Notes under the pieces: generated by a model
Databases searched by the model: none
Seen by the model: only the letters and a program-made list of their open reading frames with translations
Told to the model about the DNA's origin: nothing
Translations under genes and position numbers: made by a program
Assembly (NCBI GenBank): GCA_965140585.1
Contig: OZ223264.1
Span: 64,001 to 128,000, forward strand
Origin: Spirochaetia bacterium
Lineage (GTDB): Bacteria > Spirochaetota > Spirochaetia > UBA9216
DNA length: 64,000 bases
Reading direction: 5' to 3'
In this document: piece by piece, positions 6,273 through 60,982 of the stretch
Numbering within the stretch: position 1 is the first letter of the stretch
Layout: each line of letters opens with the position of its first letter

Positions 6273-6301
6273 GCAGAGATCATCATTGAAAAAATAGTTA
6301 T

Positions 6302-7996: not shown

Positions 7997-8062
7997 TGGT
8001 ATTTCCTTATTTATCTAATTATTATTAGTATAATTATATATTATTGTAATCGGAGGGACTGT

Positions 8063-9037: not shown

Positions 9038-9043
9038 CATATT

Positions 9044-10276: not shown

Positions 10277-10287
10277 AAAAGTAATAA

Positions 10288-11031
10288 TTAAAATCCCAGC
10301 TCTTCGGCAATCATTATCACATGGAAGTCCGAGTCTGTGGGTTGCCTGTGAATGATGTTTGTAATGTTGCAGTAGCGTTCTTCTGAGCGGCAGTCCAGAC
10401 ATCTGCCGCTTTTATTGCAGGCTAGTTCATTATGGTATTTGATATTATTCATCTGGGCTGCTGTTTCATGGATTCTATCCAGGCCGGTGTTCAGGTCTTT
10501 TACAAGCTTGTTGGCTCCGGCAACTACAATAATGCGGTCGGAACCGTAGCAGCTGCCGGCAACTCTATTGCCGGTTCCATCTATGTTTATGATCTGTCCG
10601 TCCATCGTAACGGCGTTTGCTCCCAGTATAAAAACATTTGAGACCAGGTAGTTCATCAGAATTTCCCTGGTTTCCTGTTCATTTCCGATTATCTTATATC
10701 CCGGGGTTTTGCTATCAAATGCTGTTTTATTTACAGCGCAGGTATGAGGTATGGCAACGCAGTTTTTCTTTTCCAAATCGTCATCAAGTTCAAGGGAGAA
10801 AATTGTATGAGAATCTCCAAATCCGACTGTGCTGTTTTCCGGTATCAGGTTTAGAAGAAGAGCTTTTGCTTCAGTTCCCGATTTGCAGAAGTGTGCTTCA
10901 AAATTATTTTTTGACAGATTTTTAACAGCAATACGGCATTGCTGCTTCATGTAATCAGATCTTATTTTTTCTCTACTGCAGTCCTCTTCCCTTAGTTTTG
11001 GAAATTTCAGTTTTCGTAAATTAAGCATCAT
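10288..11031 (-). CDS. LUD-domain (LutC/YkgG-like) lactate utilization family protein
   Basis: GANAVTMDGQIINIDGTGNRVA, VAGANKLV, Cys-rich tail CNKSGRCLDCRSEERYCN, EELGF end. Confidence 0.85.
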   Translation of the reverse strand: MMLNLRKLKFPKLREEDCSREKIRSDYMKQQCRIAVKNLSKNNFEAHFCKSGTEAKALLLNLIPENSTVGFGDSHTIFSLELDDDLEKKNCVAIPHTCAVNKTAFDSKTPGYKIIGNEQETREILMNYLVSNVFILGANAVTMDGQIINIDGTGNRVAGSCYGSDRIIVVAGANKLVKDLNTGLDRIHETAAQMNNIKYHNELACNKSGRCLDCRSEERYCNITNIIHRQPTDSDFHVIMIAEELGF

Positions 11032-34830: not shown

Positions 34831-34836
34831 GTCTCT

Positions 34837-37089: not shown

Positions 37090-37165
37090 AAGAATTCTTT
37101 AGAGGGACGCGATAGATTGATACCAAAGTTATATAAGCCGATACCGGGACTTGCATTATCAGCTT

Positions 37166-38572: not shown

Positions 38573-38574
38573 AT

Positions 38575-39522
38575 TCAGCCTGCGAGTTTTTTATCGAGTT
38601 TCCTGACCGCATCCATCATGATGGACATGAACAGATCGTTATCTACCTTCATGGCTACCTTGCAGTTGGGGGTCTTTCCGGTTACTCCGTAGACATCGGC
38701 AACAGTCTGGCCCCTTGTCAGTTCTCCCTGTGTTTCAATATCAACAAACATGGTTTCAAATTCAACAACCTTAGGATTGATGATTGTAGCTACGGTAAGA
38801 GCATCATGAATGGGCGCGCCTTCAATTCCGAAGTAGTTCAGGTTTGCCTGGGCAAAAAACTTCATAAGCGGGCCGACTACTGATGAAATCTTTCCGCCCC
38901 AGCTGCTTATCTCTTCTGTCTGGGCAAAACTCATCAGTGACTTGTTTGTTACATCAAGTCCGACCATGGTGACCGGCAGGCCGGAAAGGAATACTTCGCG
39001 GGCGGCTTCAGGATCAACAAAGATGTTGAACTCGGCACCGGGCGTCATGTTGCTGTCGTATACTGCGCCGCCCATAAGGACAACTTCCTTTACGTTCTTT
39101 TTAATTTCCGGAGCCTTGATGAAGGCCAGTCCTATGTTAGTAAGCGGCCCGGTCGGAACCAGCGTGACCTTCTCTGCCGATGCCTTTACGGTGTCGACTA
39201 TGAAATCAACAGCATGGCAGTCAAGAAAGGGCGCATCGGGGTTTGGAAGTTCAGCACCGTCAAGTCCGGATGTTCCGTGAATCTGCGGCGCCGTGATAAG
39301 TTCTCTGATTATCGGCCGGTCTGCTCCGCGTGCAAGAGGGATGTCATGCCGATCTATCAGAGTAAGAACCCTTCTGGCATTTTCAAAAGTTTTTTCTCCT
39401 GTCTGGTTTCCAGCTACTGTGGTTATTCCCAGGATTTCAAGTTCCGGGCTGGCTGCGGCAAGCATTATTGCCATCATGTCATCATGCCCGGGATCACAGT
39501 CAAGTATGATTTTTGTGCTCAT
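38575..39522 (-). CDS. Nucleoside hydrolase (IUNH/Rih family)
   Basis: DCDPGHDD, TGPLTN, MGG, AEFNIFVDPEAA, IHD. Confidence 0.93.
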   Translation of the reverse strand: MSTKIILDCDPGHDDMMAIMLAAASPELEILGITTVAGNQTGEKTFENARRVLTLIDRHDIPLARGADRPIIRELITAPQIHGTSGLDGAELPNPDAPFLDCHAVDFIVDTVKASAEKVTLVPTGPLTNIGLAFIKAPEIKKNVKEVVLMGGAVYDSNMTPGAEFNIFVDPEAAREVFLSGLPVTMVGLDVTNKSLMSFAQTEEISSWGGKISSVVGPLMKFFAQANLNYFGIEGAPIHDALTVATIINPKVVEFETMFVDIETQGELTRGQTVADVYGVTGKTPNCKVAMKVDNDLFMSIMMDAVRKLDKKLAG

Positions 39523-40502
39523 CAGTTTGCTCCTTCAGGCGTTTGTCCGGTGTTCGTGCCGGGCTTTTCTTTTACTTCTTCGGCTGCCGCTTCTTTTTTC
39601 TTTTTTATTGCACGTCCAGAGAAAACGGCGAGAGCTACAACTGTTATCAGGTATGGAATCAGCTGTATTAGTTCTGAGGGGATGTTCAGCGATGCAATGT
39701 AGATTGCAACAGCAGATACAAGGGCAAAAAACAGTGAGGAAATCATTGTTCCGACAGGCATCATTCCTCCGAGTGTTGCCGCTGCAATTGCTATAAATCC
39801 GCGTCCTGCTGTCATGTCGCGACTGAACCATGAGACATAACCCATTGAAAGATAGAGTCCTCCGAAGGCGGCGAACATTCCCGAAAGCATTAAAGCGTAG
39901 GTTTTTGTTCTGTTGACGTTAATTCCTACCGATTCGGCGGCATTCGGATTCTGGCCTACAGCCCGTATCCGCAGTCCCAGAGGAGTTTTGAACATAAGAA
40001 TGTAGAACAGAAAGACCGAAATAAGCGCCAGGTAGGTGAGTATATTGTGTCCGCTGATTATTTCTCCCAGAACAGGAATTTTGTTTATCAGCGGAATTTC
40101 TACATTCGGAAAAACAAGGCTTTTTAGGGATGAAGTTGAACCTTTATCACCTGTGAACATATAAAGTAGGAAGATTGTAATTCCAGATGCGAACATATTG
40201 AGTGCTACTGCGGAAAGAAAAATATCAGCCTTTAGCTTCAGGTGAAAATATGCAAGAATCAGGCACAGAAGTACACCTGCGGCAATTCCTGCCAAAAGGG
40301 CAAGCCAGAGGCTTCCTGTGAATGCACCTACTATTACCCCGAAGAAGGCCGCTATTAGCATGGCTCCTTCCATGGCGATGTTTTGTGAACCGGCCATTGT
40401 GCTGACAGCAATTCCCAAAGCCGGAAAAAGAAGCGGGGTCATGACCCGCAGGATTGCAAAGCCGAAGTTTACCGAGAAAAAGCTTTTCAGAAGTTCATTC
40501 AT
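39522..40502 (-). CDS. Nucleoside ABC transporter permease
   Basis: NIAMEG, TPLGLRIRAVGQNPNAAESVGINV, MTAGRGFIA. Confidence 0.9.
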   Translation of the reverse strand: MNELLKSFFSVNFGFAILRVMTPLLFPALGIAVSTMAGSQNIAMEGAMLIAAFFGVIVGAFTGSLWLALLAGIAAGVLLCLILAYFHLKLKADIFLSAVALNMFASGITIFLLYMFTGDKGSTSSLKSLVFPNVEIPLINKIPVLGEIISGHNILTYLALISVFLFYILMFKTPLGLRIRAVGQNPNAAESVGINVNRTKTYALMLSGMFAAFGGLYLSMGYVSWFSRDMTAGRGFIAIAAATLGGMMPVGTMISSLFFALVSAVAIYIASLNIPSELIQLIPYLITVVALAVFSGRAIKKKKEAAAEEVKEKPGTNTGQTPEGAN

Positions 40503-47786: not shown

Positions 47787-49103
47787 TTGCAGATGAGAAA
47801 AATCTCTTTCAGAGATAATATAATATTTCAGTATACCGCTGTTTCGTTTTTTACCACCTTGATAATTGCAGTTCTTCTGGTTTTGCTGATGATGGGACGA
47901 GTACAGAGTCAGCTGATACGATCACATGGGCAGTTCTACCGAGAGTTTATAAATGCAATCTCTGAAAATTACCGGGAAATACTTCCTGTTTTCAATGGAC
48001 TTAACCCTGTGGGAACAGATGAGCATACAGAAGCAGAACATGAGCATGAGGCTGCAGATGTCTGGGAACACTTCAGGCAGGATTTACAACAGTATCCTTA
48101 TATCGAAAAACTGCTCCTTATCAATACATTTAACGAAACAGTCTGGATTTATCCGGAAACTTCCGATTTCAAAAATATTAATCCCACAGTCAGAATCGGT
48201 GATACAAATCCTGGCGGTATTAATTATAAAATAAATGACGAATCTTCCGACCTGGTTGTTTCTTATTTTCTTCCGGTAAGGGACGGGACAGAGCTTGTTG
48301 GAATGGCCGAAATTATCATCAGAAACAACAATCTCAGAGAGGCCATAAATGAAAGCCGTCTAACTTTTGCAGGCTATATTTTTGCCGGCGGATCTGTTTT
48401 TTACTTAAGTGTATTTTTGCTTTTCCTCAGGCTTTATCTGAAGCAGAAATCTGCACTGGACAGGCTTGAAAAAAGTCAGAAACTCACTATTCAGACCATG
48501 TCTCTTCTTGCTGAACTAAAAGACAATGACACAAGTGAGCATGTTCAGCGTACCAGTAAATACTGCCGGGTTCTGGCAGAGGAGCTGGCGAAGGACAGCA
48601 GATACCGGGGTTATATAGATGAACATTATATAAAAGATCTGGAACGTTCAGCACCGCTCCATGATATAGGCAAAGTCGGTATACCGGAAAATATTCTGCT
48701 GAAACCGGGGCGACTGACAGAAGACGAGTTTTCAGTAATAAAAAAACACCCGTTGCTTGGGGCGAATGTTTTAAAACAGGTAATGAATTCGGTTGAGTTT
48801 CGTTCATATTTTGAGATTGCCTATCAGATTGTTCTGTCACACCATGAAAACTGGGACGGTTCCGGTTATCCGCAAGCGTTGAGTGGTGAAGATATTCCCC
48901 TGTCTGCAAGAATAATGTCCATAGCTGATGTCTATGATGCCCTTACTACCGAGCGACCGTATAAGGAAGCTTTTTCACATGAAAAGGCGGTTGAAATAAT
49001 TCTGGAGGGCAGGGGCAGCAAATTTGATCCGGCTCTTGTGGATCATTTTCTAAATATAGAAAAAGAATTTAAAATGATCTCAGATGTTAAATTTGCCCCG
49101 TAG
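47787..49103 (+). CDS. Membrane-anchored HD-GYP phosphodiesterase
   Basis: Two TM helices flanking a periplasmic domain; LHDIGKVG, HHENWDGSGYP, ADVYDALTTERPYK. Confidence 0.92.
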   Translation: MQMRKISFRDNIIFQYTAVSFFTTLIIAVLLVLLMMGRVQSQLIRSHGQFYREFINAISENYREILPVFNGLNPVGTDEHTEAEHEHEAADVWEHFRQDLQQYPYIEKLLLINTFNETVWIYPETSDFKNINPTVRIGDTNPGGINYKINDESSDLVVSYFLPVRDGTELVGMAEIIIRNNNLREAINESRLTFAGYIFAGGSVFYLSVFLLFLRLYLKQKSALDRLEKSQKLTIQTMSLLAELKDNDTSEHVQRTSKYCRVLAEELAKDSRYRGYIDEHYIKDLERSAPLHDIGKVGIPENILLKPGRLTEDEFSVIKKHPLLGANVLKQVMNSVEFRSYFEIAYQIVLSHHENWDGSGYPQALSGEDIPLSARIMSIADVYDALTTERPYKEAFSHEKAVEIILEGRGSKFDPALVDHFLNIEKEFKMISDVKFAP

Positions 49104-49175
49104 CCATGATACTATAATCCAAAAGCAGTTGTTAATATATTTTGATAGACTCTTATAATCACTCTGGAGGTAGGT

Positions 49176-50801
49176 GTGCTGAAACTATTAATTGCTGATG
49201 ATGAGCACCGTGTTTGCCAGCTTATAGAAAAGATAATTCCCTGGGAGGAGTATGACGTTAAGCTTACGGGTGTAGCCTATAATGGAATAGATGCATTTGA
49301 GCTGATTAAAGAGCTTCAGCCCGACATTGTGATTACTGATATCCGTATGCCGGGGTATGACGGCATCAGCTTAATTGAAAAAACAAGAAAACTTGATTCA
49401 GATATCAGTTTTATAATTGTCAGCGGATACCGTGATTTTGAATATGCACAGAAAGCTTTGAAATTCGGTGCTGAAGATTATCTTCTAAAGCCGATTTCCG
49501 GAGATGAATTAAAAAGGATAGTTCAGAAGGTTATTGGAAAGAAGTTAAAAAATGCTGAGAAAGAGGATTATGAAAGCCGGCTGAAATTCGAACTGAGCCG
49601 AAACAGGGAAACGCTTCGTAGGGCTCTTGCAAAAGAATTTTTAGACAGAGATTTTAACCTCGGGATGAATGATTTTTTAAATCTTCAGGAGTATTACAAT
49701 ATCAGTTTTAAAAGTTTATATTTTCAAACTGTAATTATCCAGCTGGATAATCAGGATGAAAATATTCAATTCGATAATTCTGAAGCTGAAAATACAATGC
49801 TTGAAAAAACAGAGAGCATGATATCCTCGATAATTGAAGGGGCAGTCTGTGAATATTTTTCAGTGATCCAGCGCAGAAGTATTATTTATATTTTGAACAC
49901 TTTTGATACGGAAGGCCTTAATCATAGCGATTTGGAACTTCTGCTGGAGAATTCCTCCCAGAAAATTGCAGAATATGGAAAGTGGACAGCAACAATATGT
50001 GTCGGCCGGACAGTTGAAAAAATTGAGAATCTGAACTTTAGCTTTAGAGAAGCTCTTTTTGCGCGGAAAGATCGAATAATACAGGGCACTGGAAAAATCA
50101 TCAGGTTCAGGGCGCCTATTCATGCAGATGATGACTCCCGTCGCTTCAATTATCCGGTTTTATATGAAAAAATGAAGAGAATATTTGAATCTAATGAAAC
50201 TGAGCAGGTCAAAGCACTGTTTTCGGAACTTCTTGTTTTTCCGCATATCTCCGGTAGAATAAAAAACCCTGAAATTATCAATAATTTCTTCGTCAAACTT
50301 TCTGAAATGTTTGGAGAGCTTTTAATTACCTTTGGTTCAGAAGGTGAAGAAGCCGCTGAACTAAAGAGAAAGACAGAGTTTATAATAGAGATATCGGAAT
50401 CAGTGCCGGTTATCCAGTCAAGGCTATCCGTCCTGTTCTCATCATATCTATCAAGGGCTGCTGCATCGAAAAAGCTGCAAAACTATAAGCCGGTACGGAT
50501 TGCCAAGGAATATATTGAAAAAAACTTTGCTGAAAATATAGAACTCAGTACGGTAGCCGGAAAATCCGGCTTGAACCCTGTATACTTCAGTACTCTTTTT
50601 AAAAAAGAAACAGGTACAAATTTCAAGGAATATCTCCAGCATGTTAGAATTGAGAGGGCAAAGCAGATGCTGGTTTCAGGCAATGACACTATAGTTGCGA
50701 TAAGTGAGAGTGTAGGTTACAAGGATGTCCGTTATTTCAGCAGAATCTTCACACGGACTGTAGGAATAAAACCGAATATGTACAGAAAGATTTATGGATA
50801 A
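49176..50801 (+). CDS. YesN-type response regulator (REC plus AraC HTH)
   Basis: IADDE, ITDIRMPG, YLLKP; C-terminal YFSTLFKKETG and VGYKDVRYFSRIF. Confidence 0.93.
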   Translation: MLKLLIADDEHRVCQLIEKIIPWEEYDVKLTGVAYNGIDAFELIKELQPDIVITDIRMPGYDGISLIEKTRKLDSDISFIIVSGYRDFEYAQKALKFGAEDYLLKPISGDELKRIVQKVIGKKLKNAEKEDYESRLKFELSRNRETLRRALAKEFLDRDFNLGMNDFLNLQEYYNISFKSLYFQTVIIQLDNQDENIQFDNSEAENTMLEKTESMISSIIEGAVCEYFSVIQRRSIIYILNTFDTEGLNHSDLELLLENSSQKIAEYGKWTATICVGRTVEKIENLNFSFREALFARKDRIIQGTGKIIRFRAPIHADDDSRRFNYPVLYEKMKRIFESNETEQVKALFSELLVFPHISGRIKNPEIINNFFVKLSEMFGELLITFGSEGEEAAELKRKTEFIIEISESVPVIQSRLSVLFSSYLSRAAASKKLQNYKPVRIAKEYIEKNFAENIELSTVAGKSGLNPVYFSTLFKKETGTNFKEYLQHVRIERAKQMLVSGNDTIVAISESVGYKDVRYFSRIFTRTVGIKPNMYRKIYG

Positions 50802-51822
50802 CAGGAAAACTCCAATCAGCAAGTCTTTAGCGGTTCTACTTAAACTGCATATAATTTTATTATCGCTAATTGCCCTTGCTTCCTTCTCTCTTCAGTTTGT
50901 GGAAATCCGGCTGGTTCCGGAAGGGCTGATTTCTGTTTTATTCCTGGTCTTCTTTTTTGCAGCGGTATTGTTTTCACTATATAAAAAAGTATACAGACCG
51001 ATTCACCGCATGGAAGATGCGATGGATCTTCTGTCTCAGGGAGATAATGATATTTTTGAAAGTGTAAAACTTGAGCCGGATAACGCGGTACTTTCCATGC
51101 ATTTTTCAGAGCTTATCCAGCTGCTTAAGGATTCAATAGACCGTGAGTATACATCCGACTATCTGAAAAAGGAGGCGGAGCTTAATGCCCTTCAGAGTCA
51201 AATAAATCCACATTTTCTTTATAATGTACTGGACGCAATTCGCGGACATGCTTTGAATGAGAGTGTTCCTGAGATTGCCGAGATGACTGAAGCCTTATCT
51301 AAACTGTTCCGGTACAGTGTCAGTCACTGGGAAAGTGAGGTTACTCTTGAAAGAGAGCTGATAAATGTCCGCAGCTATTTCAAAATTCAGCAATACCGTT
51401 TTAACAACAGGTTTGATTTAAGAGTTTTATTTGATGCCGATGAAAGCACTGCTTTATCCTGTAGAATGCCTAAATTGACGCTTCAGCCTGTAATAGAAAA
51501 TGCAATTTACCATGGTCTTGAAATGAAAATGGATAGGGGCATGGTTACAATCAGGATAAAAGTTTCGGGAAAGCTTCTGCTAATCGAAGTTTCTGATGAT
51601 GGTGTCGGAGTTGAGCAGGATGTGCTTGATTCAATCAATAGTTCTTTTGTCGACTGGAGGGCTGTAAAAGTTTATGAGAGAGAAAGTTCCGGCACCGGAA
51701 TTGCCCTTACAAATGTAAACAGCAGAATTAAGATGATGTACGGAGAAGATTACGGGCTGTACATGTATAGTACAAAGGGGTACGGCACTACAATAGAAAT
51801 ACTTCTTCCATTTATAGAATAG
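50794..51822 (+). CDS. YesM/LytS-type histidine kinase without an extracytoplasmic sensor domain
   Basis: Two TM helices with a loop of about 8 aa; LQSQINPHFLYN, LQPVIENAIYHG, DDGVG, GIALTNV. Confidence 0.92.
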   Translation: MDNRKTPISKSLAVLLKLHIILLSLIALASFSLQFVEIRLVPEGLISVLFLVFFFAAVLFSLYKKVYRPIHRMEDAMDLLSQGDNDIFESVKLEPDNAVLSMHFSELIQLLKDSIDREYTSDYLKKEAELNALQSQINPHFLYNVLDAIRGHALNESVPEIAEMTEALSKLFRYSVSHWESEVTLERELINVRSYFKIQQYRFNNRFDLRVLFDADESTALSCRMPKLTLQPVIENAIYHGLEMKMDRGMVTIRIKVSGKLLLIEVSDDGVGVEQDVLDSINSSFVDWRAVKVYERESSGTGIALTNVNSRIKMMYGEDYGLYMYSTKGYGTTIEILLPFIE

Positions 51823-51844
51823 ACCTGACGGGGGAAATGAAACT

Positions 51845-53296
51845 ATGGGTGAATTACTCAGGATTAGATCACTTACAACTTCAAACAACACCGAATCGGG
51901 TTTAAACGGCTTTCGGCTGCAGATATTTGATCATGAAATTGCAGGTTTGATAGGATTGAACGGTTCAGGTAAAAGTCTGCTCGTTGATGTTCTTTCCGGT
52001 GAGAGGCAGGTTAGGAAAGGTGTTCTAAAAATAGGTGATAAAAGATGGAGGCTGGATACTCAGCGCCTGTCAAGGACGCTTCTTGAAGAAAACGGTGTAT
52101 ATATTGTGAAGAATGAAACCCGTCTGATAAAAAATCTCAATCTATCCGAGAATATGTCCATCTCGACTATTAAGAAGCTCAGAAGCATGTTGAAAAATCC
52201 GCTTAAGCAGGAGCCTTTGCTGCGTGCGCTGCTGGAAGAGTTTGCTTCTGATCTTGATATAAGTACAAAGGGTGATAATCTTCCGTTGTCTGCACACTGG
52301 CGAATCGGAATTATAAAAGCATACATGGAGGGGGCTAAATTAATAATACTCGATCGTATTCTGGAGTATTGCTCCGCTCCAGAAAATGAACAGATAATGA
52401 ATCTTGTACGGACCTTCCGTAGCAAGGGGACGGCTTTTCTGGTTACATATAATAAAACCGCCCGTTTTTTAAAAGATTTTGACAGGCTTGCAATTGTCAG
52501 AAATGGAAGGCTGGCAGCCGTTGTGCACAGGGAGGACTATGATCCGGAATCTCTTGCCGGACTAATGACAGGTCAAGCTTATTCTGAAACAACTGCAGTT
52601 AGAGCCGGTTCTGAGATACCCGGAAAAAAGAAACTTTTAGAGATAAAAGATCTCAATACAGAAAATTGTATGGCTGAATTAAGTCTGAATCTCTTCACCG
52701 ATGAAATCCTGGGTGTTTACGATCCCGTGCAGGAAAACTCAGAAACTCTTTTAAAGGTCTTAACGGGAAAATGTGAAATTAAAAGTGGGCAGATTCTCAT
52801 AGACGGAAAATCTGTAAGATTTGAAAGTGCACATCATGCTCTGAAATACGGAGTAGGAATAGTGTCTGAAATACTTTTTGACAGGCTTTTTTTTGAAGAC
52901 CTTTCAGCAGGGGATAATATTATGTTTTCTGCTGCGCGTCGGGCTTCAAGGTTTTTAGGGTTTATCTCATCACAGGTAGAACAGTATTTCTGCAAAAAGC
53001 TTCCTCCTGAAATTGGAATTTCTGCAGAATGTAATGACAAGCCTGTCAGATATGTAGACAGGCATATGCAGTTTGTCCTTGCCCTTCATATGAAGATACT
53101 AAGCGGTGCGCAGATTCTAATCCTGGAAAATCCGCTTCGAAGTGCCGATCTCATTACCAGGGAACTTGTTTATCACAATATTGCAGCCCAGACCAAGAAA
53201 GGTCTTGGAATAATTTTTATCTCCTCTGATTATTCAGAGCTCGACGGCTTTTGTGACAGAATTATACAGTTTGAACAAAAAGGAGTTTTTCAGTGA
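51845..53296 (+). CDS. Degenerate CUT2 sugar-ABC ATPase-like protein
   Basis: Two-NBD layout; Walker A GLNGSGKS kept, but Walker B is LIILDR, H-switch is TYN and the LSGGNQ signature is absent. Confidence 0.82.
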   Translation: MGELLRIRSLTTSNNTESGLNGFRLQIFDHEIAGLIGLNGSGKSLLVDVLSGERQVRKGVLKIGDKRWRLDTQRLSRTLLEENGVYIVKNETRLIKNLNLSENMSISTIKKLRSMLKNPLKQEPLLRALLEEFASDLDISTKGDNLPLSAHWRIGIIKAYMEGAKLIILDRILEYCSAPENEQIMNLVRTFRSKGTAFLVTYNKTARFLKDFDRLAIVRNGRLAAVVHREDYDPESLAGLMTGQAYSETTAVRAGSEIPGKKKLLEIKDLNTENCMAELSLNLFTDEILGVYDPVQENSETLLKVLTGKCEIKSGQILIDGKSVRFESAHHALKYGVGIVSEILFDRLFFEDLSAGDNIMFSAARRASRFLGFISSQVEQYFCKKLPPEIGISAECNDKPVRYVDRHMQFVLALHMKILSGAQILILENPLRSADLITRELVYHNIAAQTKKGLGIIFISSDYSELDGFCDRIIQFEQKGVFQ

Positions 53297-54258
53297 AAAA
53301 CACTGCTCTGAAGCATCTATTGAGAGATCATCTTAATCTGTGGTTTATACTCGGTATAATTACAATCGAGTTGATTTTTTTAAAAATTGCAATTCCGAGT
53401 TTCATCTCTTTGAACAGCATTATCGGTTTTGGCCGTCAGTCTGCTATAATTTCAGTTCTGGCTATAGGTATGTGTATAATTCTAATAAGCGGAGGGTTCG
53501 ATCTTTCTGTGGGCGCAATCGTCTCACTGCTTGGAATGGTTGCAGCACTTTTATTTATCCGGTTCAATATTCCTCTGCTTCCGGTCTGTATTATTATTAT
53601 CGTTCTTGGCGGAAGCCTTGGTTTTCTTAACGGTTCGGTTTGTGCAAAAGTCCGGATTCATCCTTTCATACTTACTACAGCCCTGTCTGTTGTTTACAGG
53701 GGAACTGCGAACATTGTTAATAACGGAATGCCCATGTACGGACTTCCTGCAAGTCTCCTTAAACTGGATCGATATGCATTGCTTGGAGTTCCGCTCTCAC
53801 TGATAATACTGATTCTTTGTTTTGTTTTCGGTGCTTATATACTGAGGAAAACATATCTTGGAAAGTATATTTATGCGATCGGGCTGGACGAAAAAACAGC
53901 TGAATACGCAGGTATTGATTCAAAACTCATAAAAAAGATTGTATACAGCATTTCAGGAATGTTCTATGGAATAGCTTCAATTCTGCTTCTTACAAAGATA
54001 GGCTCAGCTCAGCCCAATGCTATGACCGGTATAGAACTCGATTTGCTTGTTGCCGCAGCTATAGGCGGGATAAGTTTCAAAGGCGGCAGGGGCCGGCTCC
54101 TGAATATAATACTTGGAGTGCTGCTAATGGAGATCTTCGCAGATACGTTGATTATCTTTAATGTTGGTGAATATTACAGAAGTATTTTCAAGGGGCTGGT
54201 TTTGCTGGCGGCCCTGTTTATGGATGGTGTAATTCGAACCGGAAAAGAAAAATCATAA
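53293..54258 (+). CDS. Sugar ABC transporter permease (RbsC-like), first copy
   Basis: GGFDLSVG, IHPFILT, GKYIYAIG...AEYAGI, ELDLLVAAAIGG; GTGA overlap with the degenerate ATPase. Confidence 0.9.
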   Translation: MKNTALKHLLRDHLNLWFILGIITIELIFLKIAIPSFISLNSIIGFGRQSAIISVLAIGMCIILISGGFDLSVGAIVSLLGMVAALLFIRFNIPLLPVCIIIIVLGGSLGFLNGSVCAKVRIHPFILTTALSVVYRGTANIVNNGMPMYGLPASLLKLDRYALLGVPLSLIILILCFVFGAYILRKTYLGKYIYAIGLDEKTAEYAGIDSKLIKKIVYSISGMFYGIASILLLTKIGSAQPNAMTGIELDLLVAAAIGGISFKGGRGRLLNIILGVLLMEIFADTLIIFNVGEYYRSIFKGLVLLAALFMDGVIRTGKEKS

Positions 54259-54298
54259 TTTTGTCTGAATTTTATCAACATAAATCTTAAATTTGTCT
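54257..54298 (+). promoter_or_regulatory. Phased direct repeats upstream of the transporter genes (candidate response-regulator site)
   Basis: AATTTTGTCT (54257), AATTTTATCA (54268), AAATTTGTCT (54289), followed by TGTTATCCT extended -10-like element. Confidence 0.5.
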
Positions 54299-54366
54299 CA
54301 TTGCGTGCTGAATTCGGCAGTGTTATCCTTAATTATCAGTAATAAACCACAAAGGGGTATCAAACA

Positions 54367-55893
54367 GTGCCGTCTCCGGTTCTAGAAATGAATAATATTA
54401 CTAAAAGTTTCTCGGGAGTAAAGGTCCTTGAAGATGTTCAGCTCACGATAAATCCAGGCGAAGTACATGCACTTATGGGTGAAAACGGTGCCGGAAAATC
54501 TACACTGATGAACATTCTTATGGGAATACATTCTGCAGACAGCGGACAGATTCTTCTCAACGGTAAAGTTGTTGTTAACAGAAGTCCCAAAGAAGCCATG
54601 GATAACGGAATATCCATGATTCATCAGGAACTTCACCCAATTCAGGATATGGACGTATCTGAGAATGTTTTTCTTGGAAGAGAGATCAGAAATGGAACGG
54701 AAGGTTTTTTCAGTCTTGTAAACAGAAATAAAATGAGACATGAGACCGCGAAACTTTTTGAGAATGCAGGTATCGATATTAATCCATCATCATTGATGCG
54801 GGATCTTAGTGTTGCTCAATGTCAGCTTGTTGAAATAATCAAGTCTGTAGCACTGTCATCCAAGATAATAATTATGGATGAACCTACATCCGCAATCACT
54901 GAAAAAGAAGTCGATTTGCTGTTCAACCAGATTAGAATGCTGAAGGAAAGCGGTACCGCAGTTATATATATTTCACATAAGATGGATGAAATATTCAGGG
55001 TTGCTGACCGGATTTCTGTTCTTAGAGACGGGAAATATATCGGCAGCGATAAAACAGAAAATCTTGATGAGCAGAAACTGATAAAGATGATGGTCGGCAG
55101 AGAGCTTACAGAGGTTTTTCCAAAAACAGAGGCCGAAATTGGCGAGATTATTCTTGAAGCAAAAAACTACAGATGGGGCAGAAAAGTCAGAGATGTAAGT
55201 TTTAATCTCCGGCGCGGAGAAATACTGGGTATTGCCGGTCTGGTCGGAGCAGGAAGAAGTGAGCTGGTTGAAACCATCTTCGGGGTGCATCCGGACGGAA
55301 GCGGTGATTTATATTTACACGGTGAAAAGATGTTCATTCGCAGGACAAGTGATGCCATCCGGCACCGGATTGCTCTGGTGACAGAAGACCGTAAAAAGAC
55401 GGGTCTTAATCTTATTGCATCCATTAAAGATAATATTACTCTGGTTTCGCTGGACCAGCTTTTTACAAAGGGTGTTATCAACAGGAAAAAAGAATCCAAA
55501 ATCGCAGATGAAAGCATTAAAAAGCTAAAGGTAAAAGCCCATTCAAAGTTTGATGCAACCAGCTCTTTGAGCGGCGGAAATCAGCAGAAAGTTGTTATAG
55601 CAAAATGGCTTTTATCAGAGCCTGATATTATTATCATGGACGAGCCGACCAGGGGTATCGATGTAGGCGCCAAAAGAGAGATTTATCTGCTTCTTGGTGA
55701 GCTTGTAAAAGCCGGGAAGGCGGTATTGATGATTTCATCCGAGATTCCTGAAATCATGGGAGTTGCAGACAGAATCCTTGTTATGGCTGAAGGCCGTATT
55801 ACCGGGGAGTTGCAAAGAGGAGAATTCTCCCAGGAAAAGATTATGCACTATGCTTCACAATTCAGAAAAGGAAATAATGATGAAGAAAATTAA
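54367..55893 (+). CDS. Sugar ABC transporter ATP-binding protein (RbsA/MglA-like), canonical
   Basis: GENGAGKST, HQE, IIIMDEPT, SHK, LSGGNQQK, DEPTRGID. Confidence 0.95.
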   Translation: MPSPVLEMNNITKSFSGVKVLEDVQLTINPGEVHALMGENGAGKSTLMNILMGIHSADSGQILLNGKVVVNRSPKEAMDNGISMIHQELHPIQDMDVSENVFLGREIRNGTEGFFSLVNRNKMRHETAKLFENAGIDINPSSLMRDLSVAQCQLVEIIKSVALSSKIIIMDEPTSAITEKEVDLLFNQIRMLKESGTAVIYISHKMDEIFRVADRISVLRDGKYIGSDKTENLDEQKLIKMMVGRELTEVFPKTEAEIGEIILEAKNYRWGRKVRDVSFNLRRGEILGIAGLVGAGRSELVETIFGVHPDGSGDLYLHGEKMFIRRTSDAIRHRIALVTEDRKKTGLNLIASIKDNITLVSLDQLFTKGVINRKKESKIADESIKKLKVKAHSKFDATSSLSGGNQQKVVIAKWLLSEPDIIIMDEPTRGIDVGAKREIYLLLGELVKAGKAVLMISSEIPEIMGVADRILVMAEGRITGELQRGEFSQEKIMHYASQFRKGNNDEEN

Positions 55894-56842
55894 GGATATT
55901 ATGACACTTCGCTCAATGCGGGAACTTGGGATAGTATTTGTATTTGCTGCCATCCTGATTGTTCTGATGATTTTATCACCAAATGCATTCGCAAGACCTG
56001 CCAATCTTATAAATATAATCAAGCAGGCTTCCATTAATGGAATCCTCGCAATGGGTATGATGTTTGTAATTATAGGCGGTGACATTGATCTTTCAGTAGG
56101 ATCCATTGTTGCGCTAACCGGAGTTGTTTCAGCCAGTTTTGCACACCCCGGAGAGTATCCTCTGATCGTTCCGTTTATACTGGCCATTGTGATAGGTATG
56201 TTTGTAGGCTGGTTAAACGGTGTAGGGGTTTCTCATGGAAAAATACCTTCATTCATTGTAACTCTGGGTATGATGACAATAGTCCGTGGCGTTGCCCTTA
56301 TCATTGCAAAGGGAGCCCCTGTATTCGGAGTAACTGATGAATATGAGTTTATTGCCGGGGGCTTTCTTTTTGACCGGGTGCCTCTGCTTGTTGTTTACTT
56401 TGCTGTAATTACAGCAATAAGTGCCTATATTTTGAATAAAACCGTATTCGGGCGAAGGGTTTACGCGATAGGTGGTAATGATATTTCTGCGGCTTTTTCC
56501 GGAATAAATGTAAATAAAATTCGTATTACCATATTCATGATCTCAGGAATGCTTGCAGGGTTTGCCGGTCTGCTTCTGGCTTCAAGAACAGTATCTGGTA
56601 ATCCGACTGCAGGTCAGTCATATGAGCTTGACGCGATTGCAGCCGTAATTATCGGTGGAGTGAGCATGTCCGGAGGATCCGGAAAGTGGTACGGAACTGT
56701 AATAGGCGCACTGTTAATCGCTGTTATCGGTAATGGACTGGATATTCTGAATGTCTCGTCGCATTATCAGCTTGTCATCAAGGGGGCAATCATAATCTTT
56801 GCTGTACTTCTTGATGTTAAAGGTAAGGGAAAAACGGCTTAA
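55877..56842 (+). CDS. Sugar ABC transporter permease (RbsC-like), second copy
   Basis: IDLSVGS, IPSFIVTLG, GRRVYAIGGN, YELDAIAAVIIGG. Confidence 0.93.
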   Translation: MMKKIKDIMTLRSMRELGIVFVFAAILIVLMILSPNAFARPANLINIIKQASINGILAMGMMFVIIGGDIDLSVGSIVALTGVVSASFAHPGEYPLIVPFILAIVIGMFVGWLNGVGVSHGKIPSFIVTLGMMTIVRGVALIIAKGAPVFGVTDEYEFIAGGFLFDRVPLLVVYFAVITAISAYILNKTVFGRRVYAIGGNDISAAFSGINVNKIRITIFMISGMLAGFAGLLLASRTVSGNPTAGQSYELDAIAAVIIGGVSMSGGSGKWYGTVIGALLIAVIGNGLDILNVSSHYQLVIKGAIIIFAVLLDVKGKGKTA

Positions 56843-56886
56843 GCCGGTTTAATAAAAATGGAATCTCATAATTTAGGAGGATTTTT

Positions 56887-57819
56887 ATGAGAAAACTGTT
56901 AACAATGGTTTTTACTCTCATGCTGGTCATGTCACTTTCTGTCTTTGCTTCAGGAAATTCAGAATCTGATGCAGCCAAACCTGCAAAATATGCACTTATG
57001 ATGAGTCATATGACAAACGCCTTTACAATGGAGCTGTCAAACGCTGTTAAAGAAAAAGCAGCTGAACTCGGTGTTGAACTTACCGTTTTTGATGGTGGGC
57101 AGGATGTTTCAAAGCAGATCAGCCAGGTTGAATCTGCTGTAAATCAGGGCTATGCAGGTATTCTTATTGAACCTGTATCAGTTGATGGAATTAAGCCTGC
57201 AGCAGAAACTGCCAAAAAGGCAGGTATTCCGCTGGTTACGGTTAACCAGAAAATTACACATCAGGAACTCACCAGTGCCTTTGTTGGTGCCAACCCTGTT
57301 GAAGGCGGAGAGCTTGAAATGAGAACCGCTGCAAATGATATCGGCGGATCAGGCAAGGTTGCCTTTCTGCTGGGGCCCCTGGGTTCTGATGCCCAGATTG
57401 GTAGAACCGAAGGATATTATAACGTACTCAAAGAGTTCCCTGGAATTGAAGTAGTATATGAACAGACTGCAAACTGGAGAACAGATGAAGCTCTGAAGCT
57501 TGTTGAAAACTGGCTTCAGACCGGAGTTGAACTTAAAGCTATTGTAGCAAACAATGACGGTATGGCTCTTGGTGCTCTGAAGGCTGTTGAAGATGCAAAG
57601 ATGCTTGATAAGATCAAGATTTACGGTCTTGATGCTACCCCTGATGCTCTTGCTGCTGTAAGAGAAGGCCGACTTTCTGCAACAATTTCTCAGAGCACTT
57701 CTGATCAGGGAATGGTTGCCATGGAAACAATTGTAAAGATTGTTAACGGAGAATCCGTACCTGCAGAAATAATTGTAGGACATACACTTATCAACAGTTC
57801 AAATATTGCTGATTTTTAA
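56887..57819 (+). CDS. Sugar ABC substrate-binding protein (RbsB-like)
   Basis: Signal FASGNSE; NAFT, ANWR, ANNDGMALGA, GLDAT. Confidence 0.92.
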   Translation: MRKLLTMVFTLMLVMSLSVFASGNSESDAAKPAKYALMMSHMTNAFTMELSNAVKEKAAELGVELTVFDGGQDVSKQISQVESAVNQGYAGILIEPVSVDGIKPAAETAKKAGIPLVTVNQKITHQELTSAFVGANPVEGGELEMRTAANDIGGSGKVAFLLGPLGSDAQIGRTEGYYNVLKEFPGIEVVYEQTANWRTDEALKLVENWLQTGVELKAIVANNDGMALGALKAVEDAKMLDKIKIYGLDATPDALAAVREGRLSATISQSTSDQGMVAMETIVKIVNGESVPAEIIVGHTLINSSNIADF

Positions 57820-57846: not shown

Positions 57847-57873
57847 GGACCGCAGAATGCGGTCCTTTTTTTT
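57847..57873 (+). terminator. Rho-independent terminator
   Basis: GGACCGCA-gaa-TGCGGTCC followed by T8. Confidence 0.9.
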
Positions 57874-58988
57874 CAGTAAGTTTTCTTCAGCCAGGAGAGG
57901 TATCCATCGCTGAGTTCTTCGGAAGTTCTTCCTGTGACCTGTTCGAATGCTGAATGAAGTACCGGCTGCAGAATTGATTCCGAATCTTCAGATTTAGCCC
58001 GATCGAAAAAATCTTTACCTGCACAGGCTTCAAGTATTTTACGGTGTACATCATCCCCCCAGGTTTCCGCCATATATTTCACTATCAGCGCTGAAATACC
58101 GTAAAAACATGATATTTCCTTTTCGTCTGTCATGGACGCCATATCAATACTCTCAAGCTTTGCGATATTCCAGGCTGCATCAGAAGGTGAAAGCCTGCCG
58201 CTTTTTATAAAATCACCTCCGAACACAGCGCCGTTGCCGTAGTGTACGGCGAGGCCTTCCGCATACCAGCCTGCCAGATAGTTTCTGCTTATTTTCAGTG
58301 TAATGTGATGAACAAGTTCATGCCTTATTGTTCCCTCATAGGGAGGAATGGTCGGATGGCCGGTCCAGATTTTCAGTGATTCATTTGCCTCTCCCCATGC
58401 CGTGAACTGCCTTTCGATTATAGGGTATGTTCTCTGCCTCAGCAGTTCTCTGTCGGTATACAGCTTGACCGGAAAGTTCTCATCAACACCTGTACCGAAC
58501 AGGTCCGACAATGCCTCATTTGAATTTATAAGGTATCTTTCAAATGACTGAAGATTCCTTTCATTTTCCCGGTAGAAGATTCTGAATCCGTCAACATCAT
58601 GCCGCAGGAAATCCAGATCGCAGTCCAGCCACTTGCCGTCCTGATAGCTGTACACAATGTTATAATTAAAGTCAAAGTTTTCACCGGCATATATGTGCTT
58701 CTGATTGATGTGAACAAGTACAGTTCTTTGGTCAATCTGATCGATTCCGGTAATATTAAAAGAAAGGTTTTGAAAATCATTATTTGCCATATACCAGAAC
58801 CAGGCATAGCTTTCATTACGGTAGTAGCTGTCTTCGGTGCTTAGCGTGGACATGTATAAATCTGAATCGGAGGTATTGATTGCGGTAATTTTATTATTCC
58901 ATGATTCAGAAAGCTTTTCTTCCACCGAAACACAGGAAAAAAATATTGCCGTCATAAAAACGATGAGTGTAAAAATTTTCTTTTTCAT
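57873..58988 (-). CDS. Lipoprotein with peptidase MA-like gluzincin domain
   Basis: Lipobox FFSC; HELVH followed by WYAEGLAVH. Confidence 0.78.
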   Translation of the reverse strand: MKKKIFTLIVFMTAIFFSCVSVEEKLSESWNNKITAINTSDSDLYMSTLSTEDSYYRNESYAWFWYMANNDFQNLSFNITGIDQIDQRTVLVHINQKHIYAGENFDFNYNIVYSYQDGKWLDCDLDFLRHDVDGFRIFYRENERNLQSFERYLINSNEALSDLFGTGVDENFPVKLYTDRELLRQRTYPIIERQFTAWGEANESLKIWTGHPTIPPYEGTIRHELVHHITLKISRNYLAGWYAEGLAVHYGNGAVFGGDFIKSGRLSPSDAAWNIAKLESIDMASMTDEKEISCFYGISALIVKYMAETWGDDVHRKILEACAGKDFFDRAKSEDSESILQPVLHSAFEQVTGRTSEELSDGYLSWLKKTY

Positions 58989-59038: not shown

Positions 59039-59314
59039 TTGATTGAGATTAATGAGCTGCTTAGTATTATCATTGACATCGTAAGTTTTTCGTTTCTGCT
59101 TATTGCCGGTTCCAAGGTGAATTTTCAGCGTTTTAAGCTCATTATTCTTGCAGTTATTTTTGTTGTCCTCAGCCATACAGCAACCGTTGTGGAGGGCTTT
59201 TTACTACCAAATTTTTTTAATGTCCTTGAACACTTGTTTTTATTATCCGCGATGATAACTCTGCTTTTTGCTGTCTCAAGAATTGCCTTTAAAAGTGAAT
59301 GTTCCGGTGCCTGA
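59039..59314 (+). CDS. Small 3-TM membrane protein
   Basis: TTG after AGGAG; three hydrophobic segments; overlaps the kinase start. Confidence 0.7.
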   Translation: MIEINELLSIIIDIVSFSFLLIAGSKVNFQRFKLIILAVIFVVLSHTATVVEGFLLPNFFNVLEHLFLLSAMITLLFAVSRIAFKSECSGA

Positions 59315-60257
59315 TATTATCATAATAATTAATACAGCAGGTATTCTTGCCGGTTTTGCAGGTATATTTCTGATTATAAAAGCGATTATCAGGAAGCGAC
59401 TGGTCTGGCAGAGCGGTATTTTTCTTCTCATTCCCGTCCTGGTTCTCATCTTTGTATTTACGGCAAATGTTTTCGAATATGAGCACCTCTATATCAATAT
59501 GGATCAGTATGAAGAGTATCTTGAACTGCTGATAATTCCTGCTCTTCTTATTTTTCTGTATTCACTTGTGACAGAAGAGGTGCTGAAAGAAAAAGTGAAA
59601 CGTGAGCAGGAACTTGAGAGAATGGTCAAGGAGCGAAACCTGTTCATTCAGGAACTGCAGCACCGTATCAAAAATAATCTACAGCTGATAAGCAGTTTTA
59701 TTAATCTTCAGATTGGTAATTCTGACAAGCGTGAAATTATGGATGCACTGGGAGCTGCAGTAAATAGGATTGATTCACTTGGTGTAGTGCAGAATGTACT
59801 TTACGACATAGATGATTTCTCAAATATCAGGATAGAATCATGTTTCGGTGAGGTTATAAGAAATCTTGTCGGATATTTTGAAATTGATACCAGAGAGACG
59901 CTTGTTGAGCTTTCTGATAGGGGTATTACAGCCGGGATGGATACAGTTGTGTCATGCTGCGTAATAATTAATGAGCTGGTTAGCAATATATTCAGGCATG
60001 TTAAAAGCCATGTTGAGAGATGTGTAATTAAAATTGATGTAGATCAGAGTTCTGACGGTATGCTGATTATCGGCCTGTCAGATAACGGCCCCGGCTTAAG
60101 TGAGAATATCAGCTTTGAGAAGACTCCGGGTCTTGGACTTTTAATAGTAGATGTTGTGACTCAGCAGATAGGCGGAACTGTAGAGATACTCAGGGGCAGC
60201 GGGACTGAATTCCGTTTTAAAATCCCTGCAGAAACAAAAAAAGTAATTGAAAAATAA
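59307..60257 (+). CDS. Membrane histidine kinase (HisKA_2 type)
   Basis: ELQHRIKNNLQ, INELVSN, DNGPG, GLGL; start uncertain (GTG 59307). Confidence 0.88.
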   Translation: MPDIIIIINTAGILAGFAGIFLIIKAIIRKRLVWQSGIFLLIPVLVLIFVFTANVFEYEHLYINMDQYEEYLELLIIPALLIFLYSLVTEEVLKEKVKREQELERMVKERNLFIQELQHRIKNNLQLISSFINLQIGNSDKREIMDALGAAVNRIDSLGVVQNVLYDIDDFSNIRIESCFGEVIRNLVGYFEIDTRETLVELSDRGITAGMDTVVSCCVIINELVSNIFRHVKSHVERCVIKIDVDQSSDGMLIIGLSDNGPGLSENISFEKTPGLGLLIVDVVTQQIGGTVEILRGSGTEFRFKIPAETKKVIEK

Positions 60258-60313
60258 TAAAAAGATAAATACTTTATATATAATAAATAATATATTAAAT
60301 ATGAGGTGTTTAA

Positions 60314-60982
60314 ATGAAAAAATATATTCCTGTGATTTTCCTTTTTCTTTTTATCTTCTCATGTGCCGCTGATGAATCGGCTTCTACAGCTGAGGCTGAC
60401 GGTTATATTAAAAACGGTCTGAGGTATGTTGAGATTCCTGAAAAAAGCAGTCAGATTCAGCTGAAAGTATACAGAGGCGATTATGTTGTTTTTCAGCCCT
60501 CTGAAAGCGATTCCGCTTTACTGAGTATTCCGGGCCTGGATATAAATGAGACTGTTTATAAATCATCAGCTGATGCAGGTTATATAAAAATGAAAAGTGC
60601 CGGTGAGTTCGAGTTCACCATTGGTGGTAAAAAAGGCACTGTCACGGTAACAGAATTTGAGGCGGAAAGCTACAAGGCTGTTTCAGCGGAAGATGCTTAT
60701 AACCTTATTAAGACTGTGGATCCTGTTATTCTTGATGTAAGAACCCAGGCAGAATACGACAGCGGGCATCTGGAAGGCGCGATCCTGATTCCGGTTCAGG
60801 TGCTTGAACAGAATATGGGTGTACTGGAACAGTTTAAAGATGAGAACATCCTTGTTTACTGTGCGTCCGGAAACCGCAGTACTGTGGCTTCGAAGCTGCT
60901 TCTTGAGGCAGACTTCTCCCGTCTGTACAACATGCGCTACGGTATAAGAGAGTGGCTGCAGAAGGGTTATCCGGTAGAATGA
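60314..60982 (+). CDS. Rhodanese-domain lipoprotein
   Basis: Lipobox IFSC; LDVRTQAEYDSGHLEGA, YCASGNRS, GIREW. Confidence 0.88.
   Translation: MKKYIPVIFLFLFIFSCAADESASTAEADGYIKNGLRYVEIPEKSSQIQLKVYRGDYVVFQPSESDSALLSIPGLDINETVYKSSADAGYIKMKSAGEFEFTIGGKKGTVTVTEFEAESYKAVSAEDAYNLIKTVDPVILDVRTQAEYDSGHLEGAILIPVQVLEQNMGVLEQFKDENILVYCASGNRSTVASKLLLEADFSRLYNMRYGIREWLQKGYPVE

Follow-up and report, generated by a model that had tools for sequence, protein, structure and literature searches.

The 64,000-nt stretch of DNA analyzed here, from a Spirochaetia bacterium of the UBA9216 lineage (assembly GCA_965140585.1, contig OZ223264.1, positions 64,001 to 128,000) and referred to below as the window, carries seven genes on the + strand between positions 49176 and 57819. 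The last three encode a complete sugar importer of the CUT2 family of ATP-binding cassette (ABC) transporters, and the four that precede them encode a response regulator, a histidine kinase without a sensor domain, a degenerate relative of the importer's tandem ATPase, termed here the pseudo-ATPase, and an additional permease (permease 1). The pseudo-ATPase and its association with the kinase are the subject of this report. The cassette and its control elements are laid out as follows, with NBD denoting a nucleotide-binding domain, REC a receiver domain, HTH a helix-turn-helix domain and RBS a ribosome-binding site.

49132-49159, + strand: sigma-70-like promoter candidate (TTAATA-16-TATAAT), a consensus match only, in the 72-nt gap 5' of the regulator gene
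49176-50801, + strand: response regulator of 541 aa, REC plus AraC-type HTH (YesN-like; Response_reg 7.6e-25, HTH_18 4.8e-20)
50794-51822, + strand: membrane-anchored histidine kinase of 342 aa without a sensor domain (PF06580, His_kinase, plus HATPase_c)
51845-53296, + strand: pseudo-ATPase of 483 aa, a tandem-NBD CUT2 paralog with both ATP sites degenerate
53293-54258, + strand: permease 1 (BPD_transp_2) of 321 aa (PF02653, 1.8e-32)
54259-54366, + strand: conserved intergenic control region of 108 nt with a direct repeat, a TTGCG block and an RBS
54367-55893, + strand: canonical CUT2 tandem ATPase of 508 aa with every motif intact (580 bits to the xylose ABC ATPase model PRK13549)
55880-56842, + strand: permease 2, of the importer, 320 aa from a conserved ATG whose position is set by orthologs
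56887-57819, + strand: periplasmic sugar-binding protein (Peripla_BP_4, RbsB/AlsB-like) with a signal peptide and no N-terminal Cys

An initial annotation, made by a model from the sequence without database searches, had described the regulator, kinase, ATPase-like and permease 1 genes as tightly coupled and as followed, after a 108-nt gap, by a complete importer, and the gene coordinates agree with this description. The regulator and kinase genes overlap by 8 nt, a gap of 22 nt separates the kinase and pseudo-ATPase genes, and the pseudo-ATPase and permease 1 genes overlap by 4 nt. Comparison with orthologs places the conserved start of permease 2 at 55880 rather than 55763. The cassette contains a single binding-protein gene, and a domain scan saw no PhoU-like gene among its members. 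The candidate at 49132-49159 is a possible constitutive promoter of the sensor operon; a promoter and terminator scan of the window gave no enrichment over shuffled sequences (20 found vs 20.9 expected) and returned neither a terminator 3' of permease 1 nor a strong sigma-70 match in the 108-nt gap.

The pseudo-ATPase is homologous over its full length to the CUT2 ATPases (TC 3.A.1.2; RbsA/AraG/XylG/MglA type) and retains their tandem NBD1-NBD2 build, and yet it is highly diverged: residues 5-478 align to the NCBIfam AraG model at 172 bits against a model cut-off of 689, a Pfam scan recovers a single ABC_tran stretch, and the identity to the neighboring canonical ATPase is 23%. An AlphaFold model of the protein adopts the two-NBD fold (mean pLDDT 75.6), and its nearest solved folds are the fused importer ATPases DppD and OppD of the mycobacterial Dpp and Opp systems (TMq 0.54-0.65); a protein atlas look-up of NBD1 returned generic ABC clusters only. 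Among the motifs that build the ATP sites, the Walker A1 motif (GLNGSGKS) and the Walker B1 Asp are retained and nothing else. Pairwise and multiple alignments show that the Q-loop Gln is replaced by Asn and that the catalytic Glu is replaced by Arg, Walker B1 reading LIILDR where the neighbor has IIIMDE. The H-switch reads TYNK in place of SHK, and the NBD2 signature VDRHMQ in place of LSGGNQ. Additionally, the NBD2 Walker A motif (DPVQENSE vs GLVGAGRSE in the neighbor), the NBD2 Walker B motif (ILENP vs MDEP) and the NBD1 signature (LPLSAHW vs LSVAQCQ) have been lost. Because site 1 is without its catalytic Glu, H-switch His, Q-loop Gln and NBD2 signature, and site 2 has lost the NBD1 signature along with Walker A2 and Walker B2, neither composite ATP site is intact. 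CUT2 ATPases require at least one competent ATP site; the pseudo-ATPase has none, and we propose from its sequence that it cannot hydrolyze ATP. The initial annotation had recognized the retained Walker A motif and the loss of the Q-loop Gln, catalytic Glu, H-switch and NBD2 signature, all of which the alignments bear out; with three further motifs gone, it had understated the extent of the degeneration. Such degeneration is unique in this genome, which encodes 25 tandem CUT2 ATPases, as the other 24 all keep site 1.

The kinase with which the pseudo-ATPase gene is coupled has two hydrophobic segments, at approximately residues 13-33 and 45-63, with some 10 residues of loop between them, as judged from hydropathy and alignment. 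The transmembrane (TM) pair is followed by a linker of about 60 residues, the dimerization and histidine phosphotransfer (DHp) domain (PF06580, His140) and then HATPase_c. The proposal of a kinase with two TM helices and no periplasmic ligand domain therefore stands, with a loop slightly longer than the 8 or so residues first estimated. Invariant in 20 short kinases of this kind are H140 in QINPHFLYN, N236, D268-G270-G272 and G302, and the kinase/regulator pair, which carries the phospho-accepting His, the N and G boxes and a receiver domain, is predicted to be active. The TM region is the least conserved part of the kinase, at 24% identity among orthologs vs 85% for the DHp domain, and so looks like an anchor rather than a sensor. 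The cassette kinase is the only short one among the 7 PF06580 kinases of the genome. In the window's genome (G000), four of the long PF06580 kinases (500-637 aa) are encoded no more than a few kb from other canonical CUT2 ATPase genes, on contigs C3 (~130-135 kb), C2 (~366-373 kb) and C9 (~336-342 kb and 362-369 kb), and the genome thus uses the sensor-bearing and dead-ATPase designs side by side.

Permease 1 covers positions 4-269 of the 269 positions of PF02653 and scores 180 bits to the AraH model, under its cut-off of 378. It is a full-length BPD_transp_2 CUT2 permease of the RbsC/AraH type, inclusive of the conserved cytoplasmic loop G-x-x-x-Y-A-x-G ... G-I. This loop, GKYIYAIGLDEKTAEYAGI in permease 1, aligns with GRRVYAIGGNDISAAFSGI of permease 2, and would be the NBD-coupling element. 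Permease 1 belongs to a clade separate from the importer permeases, comprising 25 clusters at 45-66% identity, after which scores drop from 272 to 206 bits. The clade takes in Sediminispirochaeta smaragdinae and the clostridial Anaerotalea alkaliphila; the contig of the Anaerotalea permease 1 has the same size (14740) as the contig of a short kinase from the same species.

The 108-nt gap that separates the two groups of genes contains a direct repeat composed of TCTGAATTTTATCAACAT (54264-54281) and TCTTAAATTTGTCTCATT (54285-54302), each 18 bp in length and with a spacing of 21 bp. It also holds a TTGCG block, a strong RBS (AAAGGGG, 54351-54357) and the GTG start of the canonical ATPase. These elements are present in all three genomes compared, namely that of the window and two others of the same order, G003 and G005; the gap is conserved far above the level predicted from the flanking coding DNA, and the strict half-site of the repeat has a single occurrence in the 4.85-Mb genome. 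An AraC-type regulator binding site at an activator-dependent promoter would look like this.

Conservation of the pseudo-ATPase speaks against decay. A search of 5.8 billion proteins recovered 13 homologs at 43-53% identity (360-546 bits), one of them named from Sediminispirochaeta bajacaliforniensis, beyond which scores fall to 144 bits and to ordinary CUT2 ATPases. Twelve of the 13 were aligned, the fragment P0011 being left out. All of these carry Walker A1 as GLNGSGK, LD(R/G) for DE and TYNK for SHK, and all are without both signatures, the NBD2 Walker A motif and the NBD2 Walker B motif; none of the 12 sequences of the spirochaete clade departs from the Walker A1 Lys or the Walker B1 Asp. 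That the same substitutions recur across the aligned homologs excludes recent decay, the refutation foreseen in the initial annotation. Synonymous sites are saturated in every pair of genes compared (pS, the proportion of synonymous differences, 0.65-0.86), and for this reason only pN/pS, where pN is the nonsynonymous counterpart, and the nonsynonymous distance dN are given. For the pseudo-ATPase, pN is 0.23-0.37 and pS 0.76-0.86 (saturated), which translates to a pN/pS of 0.28-0.47, in line with the ratio below 1 that a functional gene was expected to show. In the closest pair, dN is 0.275 for the pseudo-ATPase vs 0.092 for the canonical ATPase. Purifying selection on the pseudo-ATPase is clear, and it is about threefold looser than on the working ATPase.

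The surrounding gene order is conserved as well. Pseudo-ATPase matches above 700 bits were found in 3 of 11 genomes of the window's order (the window's own, G003 and G005), and in G003 and G005 all seven genes recur in unchanged order between unrelated neighbors, the gap 5' of the canonical ATPase gene measuring 102 and 90 nt, respectively. Two metagenome contigs add the orders regulator-kinase-pseudo-ATPase-permease 1-ATPase (with frameshifts) and kinase-pseudo-ATPase-permease 1, so that the synteny of regulator, kinase, degenerate ATPase and permease envisaged at the outset is conserved in all five spirochaete-type loci for which DNA context is available. Furthermore, for 13/13 pseudo-ATPase homolog clusters the longest contig has the same size as that of a kinase or permease 1 cluster. 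On metagenome contig L067 (2100-8450), reading the cassette means crossing several frameshifts, located in the genes for the regulator, the kinase, the dead ATPase and the ATPase, which may be assembly errors or real decay. Second-tier matches of about 210 bits in G005, G006, G007 and G010 were considered as a second dead family and rejected, as two of the five were aligned and proved to be ordinary CUT2 ATPases with site 1 intact. The two halves of the cassette evolve at different rates: the dead ATPase is 49/46% identical to its orthologs in G003 and G005, respectively, the regulator 50/51%, the kinase 58/57% and permease 1 61/62%, vs 69/73% for the importer ATPase, 76/74% for the binding protein and 82/82% for permease 2.

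The association extends beyond the spirochaetes. Relatives of the kinase of 310-370 aa with the same two-TM, short-loop build are abundant in Clostridia, and 400 sampled Clostridia genomes were accordingly searched with a profile of the 20 short kinases. At E <= 1e-80, 21 genomes gave matches, the frame being 335-373 aa long in 15 cases; 14 full loci were read, and a fifteenth from a short contig. In every one of these 15 loci, an open reading frame (ORF) resembling a tandem ABC ATPase lies beside the regulator-kinase pair. It is directly 3' of the kinase gene on the same strand in 13 of the 15, and in the 12 loci measured the two genes are separated by -179 to +23 nt; the two variant layouts are L119, which is convergent, and L129, in which the ATPase gene is 5' of the regulator gene. 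Among the 14 scorable ORFs, the NBD2 SGG is absent from 14, the Walker B1 Asp-Glu from 13, the NBD2 Walker A motif from 13 and Walker A1 from 12; the L129 copy is the near-intact exception. In L129 itself (G725:C13:31500-51400), the stretch 6300-10600 encodes, after a two-permease importer, a tandem ATPase of 556 aa in which the Walker A and B motifs are intact and the signatures degenerate, and this protein may represent an intermediate stage toward a pseudo-ATPase. The canonical ATPases next door keep their site 1 motifs in 11 of 11 cases. The Clostridia loci continue with a canonical ATPase and one permease and have no extra permease, and a gap of 61-263 nt precedes the canonical ATPase gene in 8 of the 10 loci that show both genes.

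As a control, 32 loci of long, sensor-bearing YesM-type kinases (24 from two genomes and 8 from the Clostridia sample, with 1.5-kb flanks each) were inspected, and none has an ATPase-like ORF directly 3' of the kinase gene. A regulator or binding-protein gene takes its place, often in an XylFII-like order of kinase followed by binding protein. The association of sensorless kinases with dead ATPases is specific and spans two phyla: a degenerate tandem NBD gene flanks a two-TM PF06580 kinase and a REC-AraC regulator, by an intact CUT2 importer, in 5/5 spirochaete-type and 15/15 Clostridia loci. Because the Clostridia loci all have a degenerate ATPase and no extra permease, the constant partner of the kinase is the dead ATPase and not permease 1.

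To gauge the size of the family, a profile of the spirochaete clade was run against 1.84 billion representative proteins, and 147 of the best 150 matches cover the motifs. Among these 147, at least 61 have both site 1 and the NBD2 Walker A motif broken (24 of these keep Walker A1), 82 have site 1 intact and 4 are mixed. Three long matches (P0292, P0347 and P0360) join an ATPase to a permease and not to a kinase. In one Anaerolineae genome (G816) inspected for a fused NBD-kinase, the two odd-length frames scanned are a canonical ATPase, in a locus of the order regulator-long kinase-binding protein-ATPase-permease-permease, and an ABC exporter, a sample too small to speak against such fusions. 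A FastTree phylogeny of 95 sequences unites the canonical ATPases in one starred clade, outside which the dead ones fall, and places the spirochaete clade with most of the kinase-linked Clostridia copies in one starred group of 28.

Structure prediction provides a physical link between the two proteins. When the pseudo-ATPase was modeled together with the full-length kinase, ipSAE was 0.66 in each of three runs vs a best value of 0.00 in three controls, with a pLDDT of 74 for each chain; at least 90% of the contacts agreed between runs. In the calibration set, 116 of 157 solved complexes and 2 of 215 mismatched pairs reached the mark, counts that hold only roughly here because our own alignments were supplied. 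The ATPase contributes residues 1-3, 9, 24-28, 62 and 219-245, which map to strands E3-11, E25-28, E55-63 and E214-228 and to helix 234-242 of NBD1; the surface, at the outer beta-sheet of this domain, takes in its N-terminal antiparallel sheet, its C-terminal hairpin and the helix. The kinase contributes residues 212, 252-265, 286 and 319-333, of which 252-265 and 319-333 lie in the sheet of its catalytic and ATP-binding (CA) domain. Sequence and fold searches turned up no solved complex between an NBD and a kinase, and the result is for this reason unlikely to be the recall of a known structure. The N-terminal interface motifs E-(I/V/L)-L-R and F-x-(L/M)-x-(I/V)-(F/Y) are common to the spirochaete and Clostridia pseudo-ATPases and different in the canonical ones. 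The contact surface on NBD1 is, from what we take to be general features of such domains, peripheral and off both the membrane-domain groove and the NBD-NBD interface, and a single pseudo-ATPase could therefore hold both a kinase and a membrane domain.

We consider it reasonably probable, if far from settled, that the products of the first four genes make up a sugar receptor of transporter origin, through which the kinase is controlled and the importer, encoded by the last three, is induced. According to this model, the kinase, having no ligand domain of its own, would take its input from the pseudo-ATPase, bound to the CA domain through the outer beta-sheet of NBD1. The pseudo-ATPase, without hydrolysis, would sit under an ABC membrane domain, furnished by permease 1 in the spirochaetes and Anaerotalea and probably by the importer's own permease in other Clostridia. 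Docking of a sugar-loaded binding protein on the membrane domain would move the two NBD halves as in a normal transport cycle, and this movement would free or reposition the CA domain of the kinase. Finally, the phosphorylated AraC-type regulator would bind the direct repeat in the 108-nt gap and turn on the importer operon. The parts of this scheme that we infer are the docking of the pseudo-ATPase on a permease, the binding protein as the stimulus, the direction in which the kinase responds and the gap promoter as the target of the regulator.

The model shares much with that of the initial annotation, which had the dead ATPase and permease 1 form a non-transporting receptor that reads the liganded binding protein. 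That earlier reading is supported in part: the conserved dead ATPase and its predicted link to the kinase stand, and the anatomy changes in that permease 1 is not the constant partner of the kinase across the two phyla. Nor is Bce-style intramembrane sensing through permease 1 favored, because the predicted contact is cytoplasmic and the TM region is the least conserved part of the kinase.

Several observations weigh against the receptor model. The Clostridia loci lack permease 1, and sharing of the importer permease there is an assumption. Walker A1 is gone from most pseudo-ATPases in Clostridia (12 of 14), and nucleotide binding therefore cannot be general to the mechanism. Conservation of the predicted interface does not clearly exceed that of the remaining protein, with 8 of 22 contact residues invariant or nearly so vs about 31% overall; moreover, the complex score is a model confidence and not a measurement, and the neighboring canonical ATPase was not among the controls. 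The distribution of the module is patchy, as one genome of the same genus, 99% complete, gave no pseudo-ATPase match. A sample of 401 genomes of the phylum likewise returned a match in the window's own genome alone, a result that, with three candidates scored per genome, is not evidence of absence. Lastly, the grouping of pseudo-ATPases outside the canonical clade could be due to long-branch attraction, and the tree is provisional.

In one alternative, the pseudo-ATPase would regulate the kinase as a soluble protein of the cytoplasm, reading an internal cue, for example ATP/ADP through its Walker A motif or an internal sugar, without docking on a permease, with permease 1 serving as a second membrane subunit of the importer. 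The predicted kinase contact is wholly cytoplasmic, the Clostridia loci have no dedicated permease, and the invariance of the Walker A1 Lys and Walker B1 Asp in the spirochaete clade would be accounted for. Sensing of ATP, however, cannot be general where Walker A1 has been lost so widely in Clostridia, and the kinases keep their membrane anchor even though the TM sequence is free to vary, as fits a partner held at the membrane. In the spirochaetes, furthermore, permease 1 is translationally coupled to the pseudo-ATPase, lies 5' of the regulated gap and apart from the importer genes, and in evolutionary rate resembles the sensor genes (61-62% identity) rather than permease 2 (82%). We regard a purely cytoplasmic regulator as unlikely.

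It is more doubtful still that the pseudo-ATPase and permease 1 are simply importer subunits without a role in signaling, for example parts of a heteromeric membrane domain with an inhibitory, non-hydrolyzing NBD that throttles uptake, their position reflecting co-regulation. Heteromeric CUT2 permease pairs such as LsrCD and YtfT/YjfF do exist, and two-permease importers are found at L129 and L130. An importer subunit would nevertheless be expected 3' of the regulated promoter and not 5' of it. Moreover, the association is specific to sensorless kinases (15/15 loci vs 0/32 for long kinases), the pseudo-ATPase gene touches or overlaps the kinase gene in 12 of the 12 same-strand Clostridia loci measured, and the kinase-binding model passes its controls. 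That the pseudo-ATPase is a duplicated importer gene now decaying into a pseudogene, as the loss of catalytic motifs at both sites might suggest, can be set aside with near certainty: the frame is open in every complete locus, homologs at 43-53% identity share the same substitutions, pN is far under the saturated pS, and the protein, at 23% identity to its neighbor and outside the canonical clade, is not a recent copy.

The receptor model has partial counterparts among characterized systems. The BceRS-BceAB systems of the Firmicutes likewise combine a kinase having two TM helices and no extracellular domain with an ABC system that acts as the sensor, and in VirAB-VirRS-AnrAB, one transporter senses and a second does the work (PMC7828314, PMC3023708). 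Bce-type systems, however, are built on an exporter directed against peptides with an FtsX-type permease bearing a large loop, an active ATPase, an OmpR-type regulator and flux sensing. The cassette described here shares with them the two TM helices and short loop, and has no BceS-like kinase, OmpR regulator or BceAB exporter; it draws instead on an importer family (CUT2/BPD_transp_2), a dead tandem NBD, a PF06580 kinase and an AraC-type regulator, with a predicted contact between NBD and CA domain rather than between TM helices.

Closer in its regulatory parts is XylFII-LytS-YesN of Clostridium beijerinckii, in which a LytS/YesM kinase of the PF06580 family and a REC-AraC regulator control the CUT2 importer genes xylFGH; a periplasmic four-helix-bundle domain of the kinase binds XylFII, a paralog of the binding protein (PMC8050422). 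The kinase family, regulator type and kind of target are the same here, with a PF06580 kinase and REC-AraC regulator located by a CUT2 importer. In place of a periplasmic domain, the kinase has a loop of about 10 residues, no second, dedicated binding protein is encoded, and the accessory place is taken by a dead ATPase, together with a permease in the spirochaetes.

In PstSCAB-PhoU-PhoR, the conformational state of an importer is read by a kinase without a periplasmic domain, and mutants of PstB that are locked in conformation and do not transport are reported still to signal to PhoR (PMC5775613). These mutants may be viewed, by analogy, as a precedent for signaling by NBD conformation. In the Pst system the working transporter is itself the sensor, acting through PhoU and a PAS domain in PhoR, whereas here a separate and permanently non-hydrolyzing paralog would fill that role. 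A further parallel is UhpC-UhpB, in which a transporter paralog has turned into the receptor of a membrane kinase, with the genuine transporter as the target of induction. UhpC, though, is a single membrane protein of the major facilitator superfamily (MFS) and not an ABC protein, UhpB has many TM helices, and the system includes no pseudo-ATPase. A literature search, with most subscription journals outside its reach, turned up no report of a sugar-system kinase partnered by a degenerate ABC ATPase; the initial annotation likewise knew of no characterized CUT2 example.

The genes that surround the cassette in the window merit brief mention. Directly 5' of the regulator gene, 47787-49103 (+ strand) encodes a membrane-anchored HD-GYP-type (HD_5) protein, which is probably unrelated to the cassette because it is not adjacent to it in G003 or G005. 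On the other side, 57873-58988 (- strand) encodes a protein of 371 aa that has a hydrophobic segment at its N terminus and carries the HExxH motif HELVH; it has no Pfam family at E <= 0.01 and could be an undescribed secreted metallopeptidase. It is followed at 59268-60982 (+ strand) by genes for a small HisKA_2/HWE-type kinase (329 aa) and then a rhodanese-domain protein. At a greater distance, GC content rises to 0.48-0.52 at window positions 30000-40000 vs ~0.40-0.44 in the rest of the window, and this block may be foreign or highly expressed. An Rfam scan returned no family anywhere in the window.

How sensorless bacterial kinases receive their signals is a standing question. The known routes employ working transporters, as in the Bce and Pst systems, or paralogs of binding proteins, as with XylFII, LuxP and TorT. 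If the receptor model is true, the module described here would add a third route, in which a dedicated dead ABC motor couples a membrane domain to a kinase. As a tentative extension of the model, and one we hold with less confidence than the model itself, dead CUT2 ATPases may constitute widespread and unrecognized signaling adaptors, in which the hydrolysis-free opening and closing of the NBDs serves as the input switch of the kinase, clamping or releasing the CA domain according to whether a liganded binding protein occupies the membrane domain. The spirochaetes and Anaerotalea would have duplicated the permease and thereby arrived at a complete pseudo-transporter receptor, and in the spirochaete clade the retained Walker A1 motif may allow gating by ATP. 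The module is not rare, given that the kinase form occurs in 15 of 400 sampled Clostridia genomes and that at least 61 of the 147 best representatives are of the dead type. Its few parts and adjoining output promoter make it directly amenable to testing, and it would also offer a natural system in which to study NBD motions uncoupled from hydrolysis. Moreover, the label "sugar ABC transporter ATP-binding protein," which annotation pipelines currently assign to such genes, would miscount transporters and hide a regulatory layer of carbohydrate use in anaerobes of the gut and of sediments.

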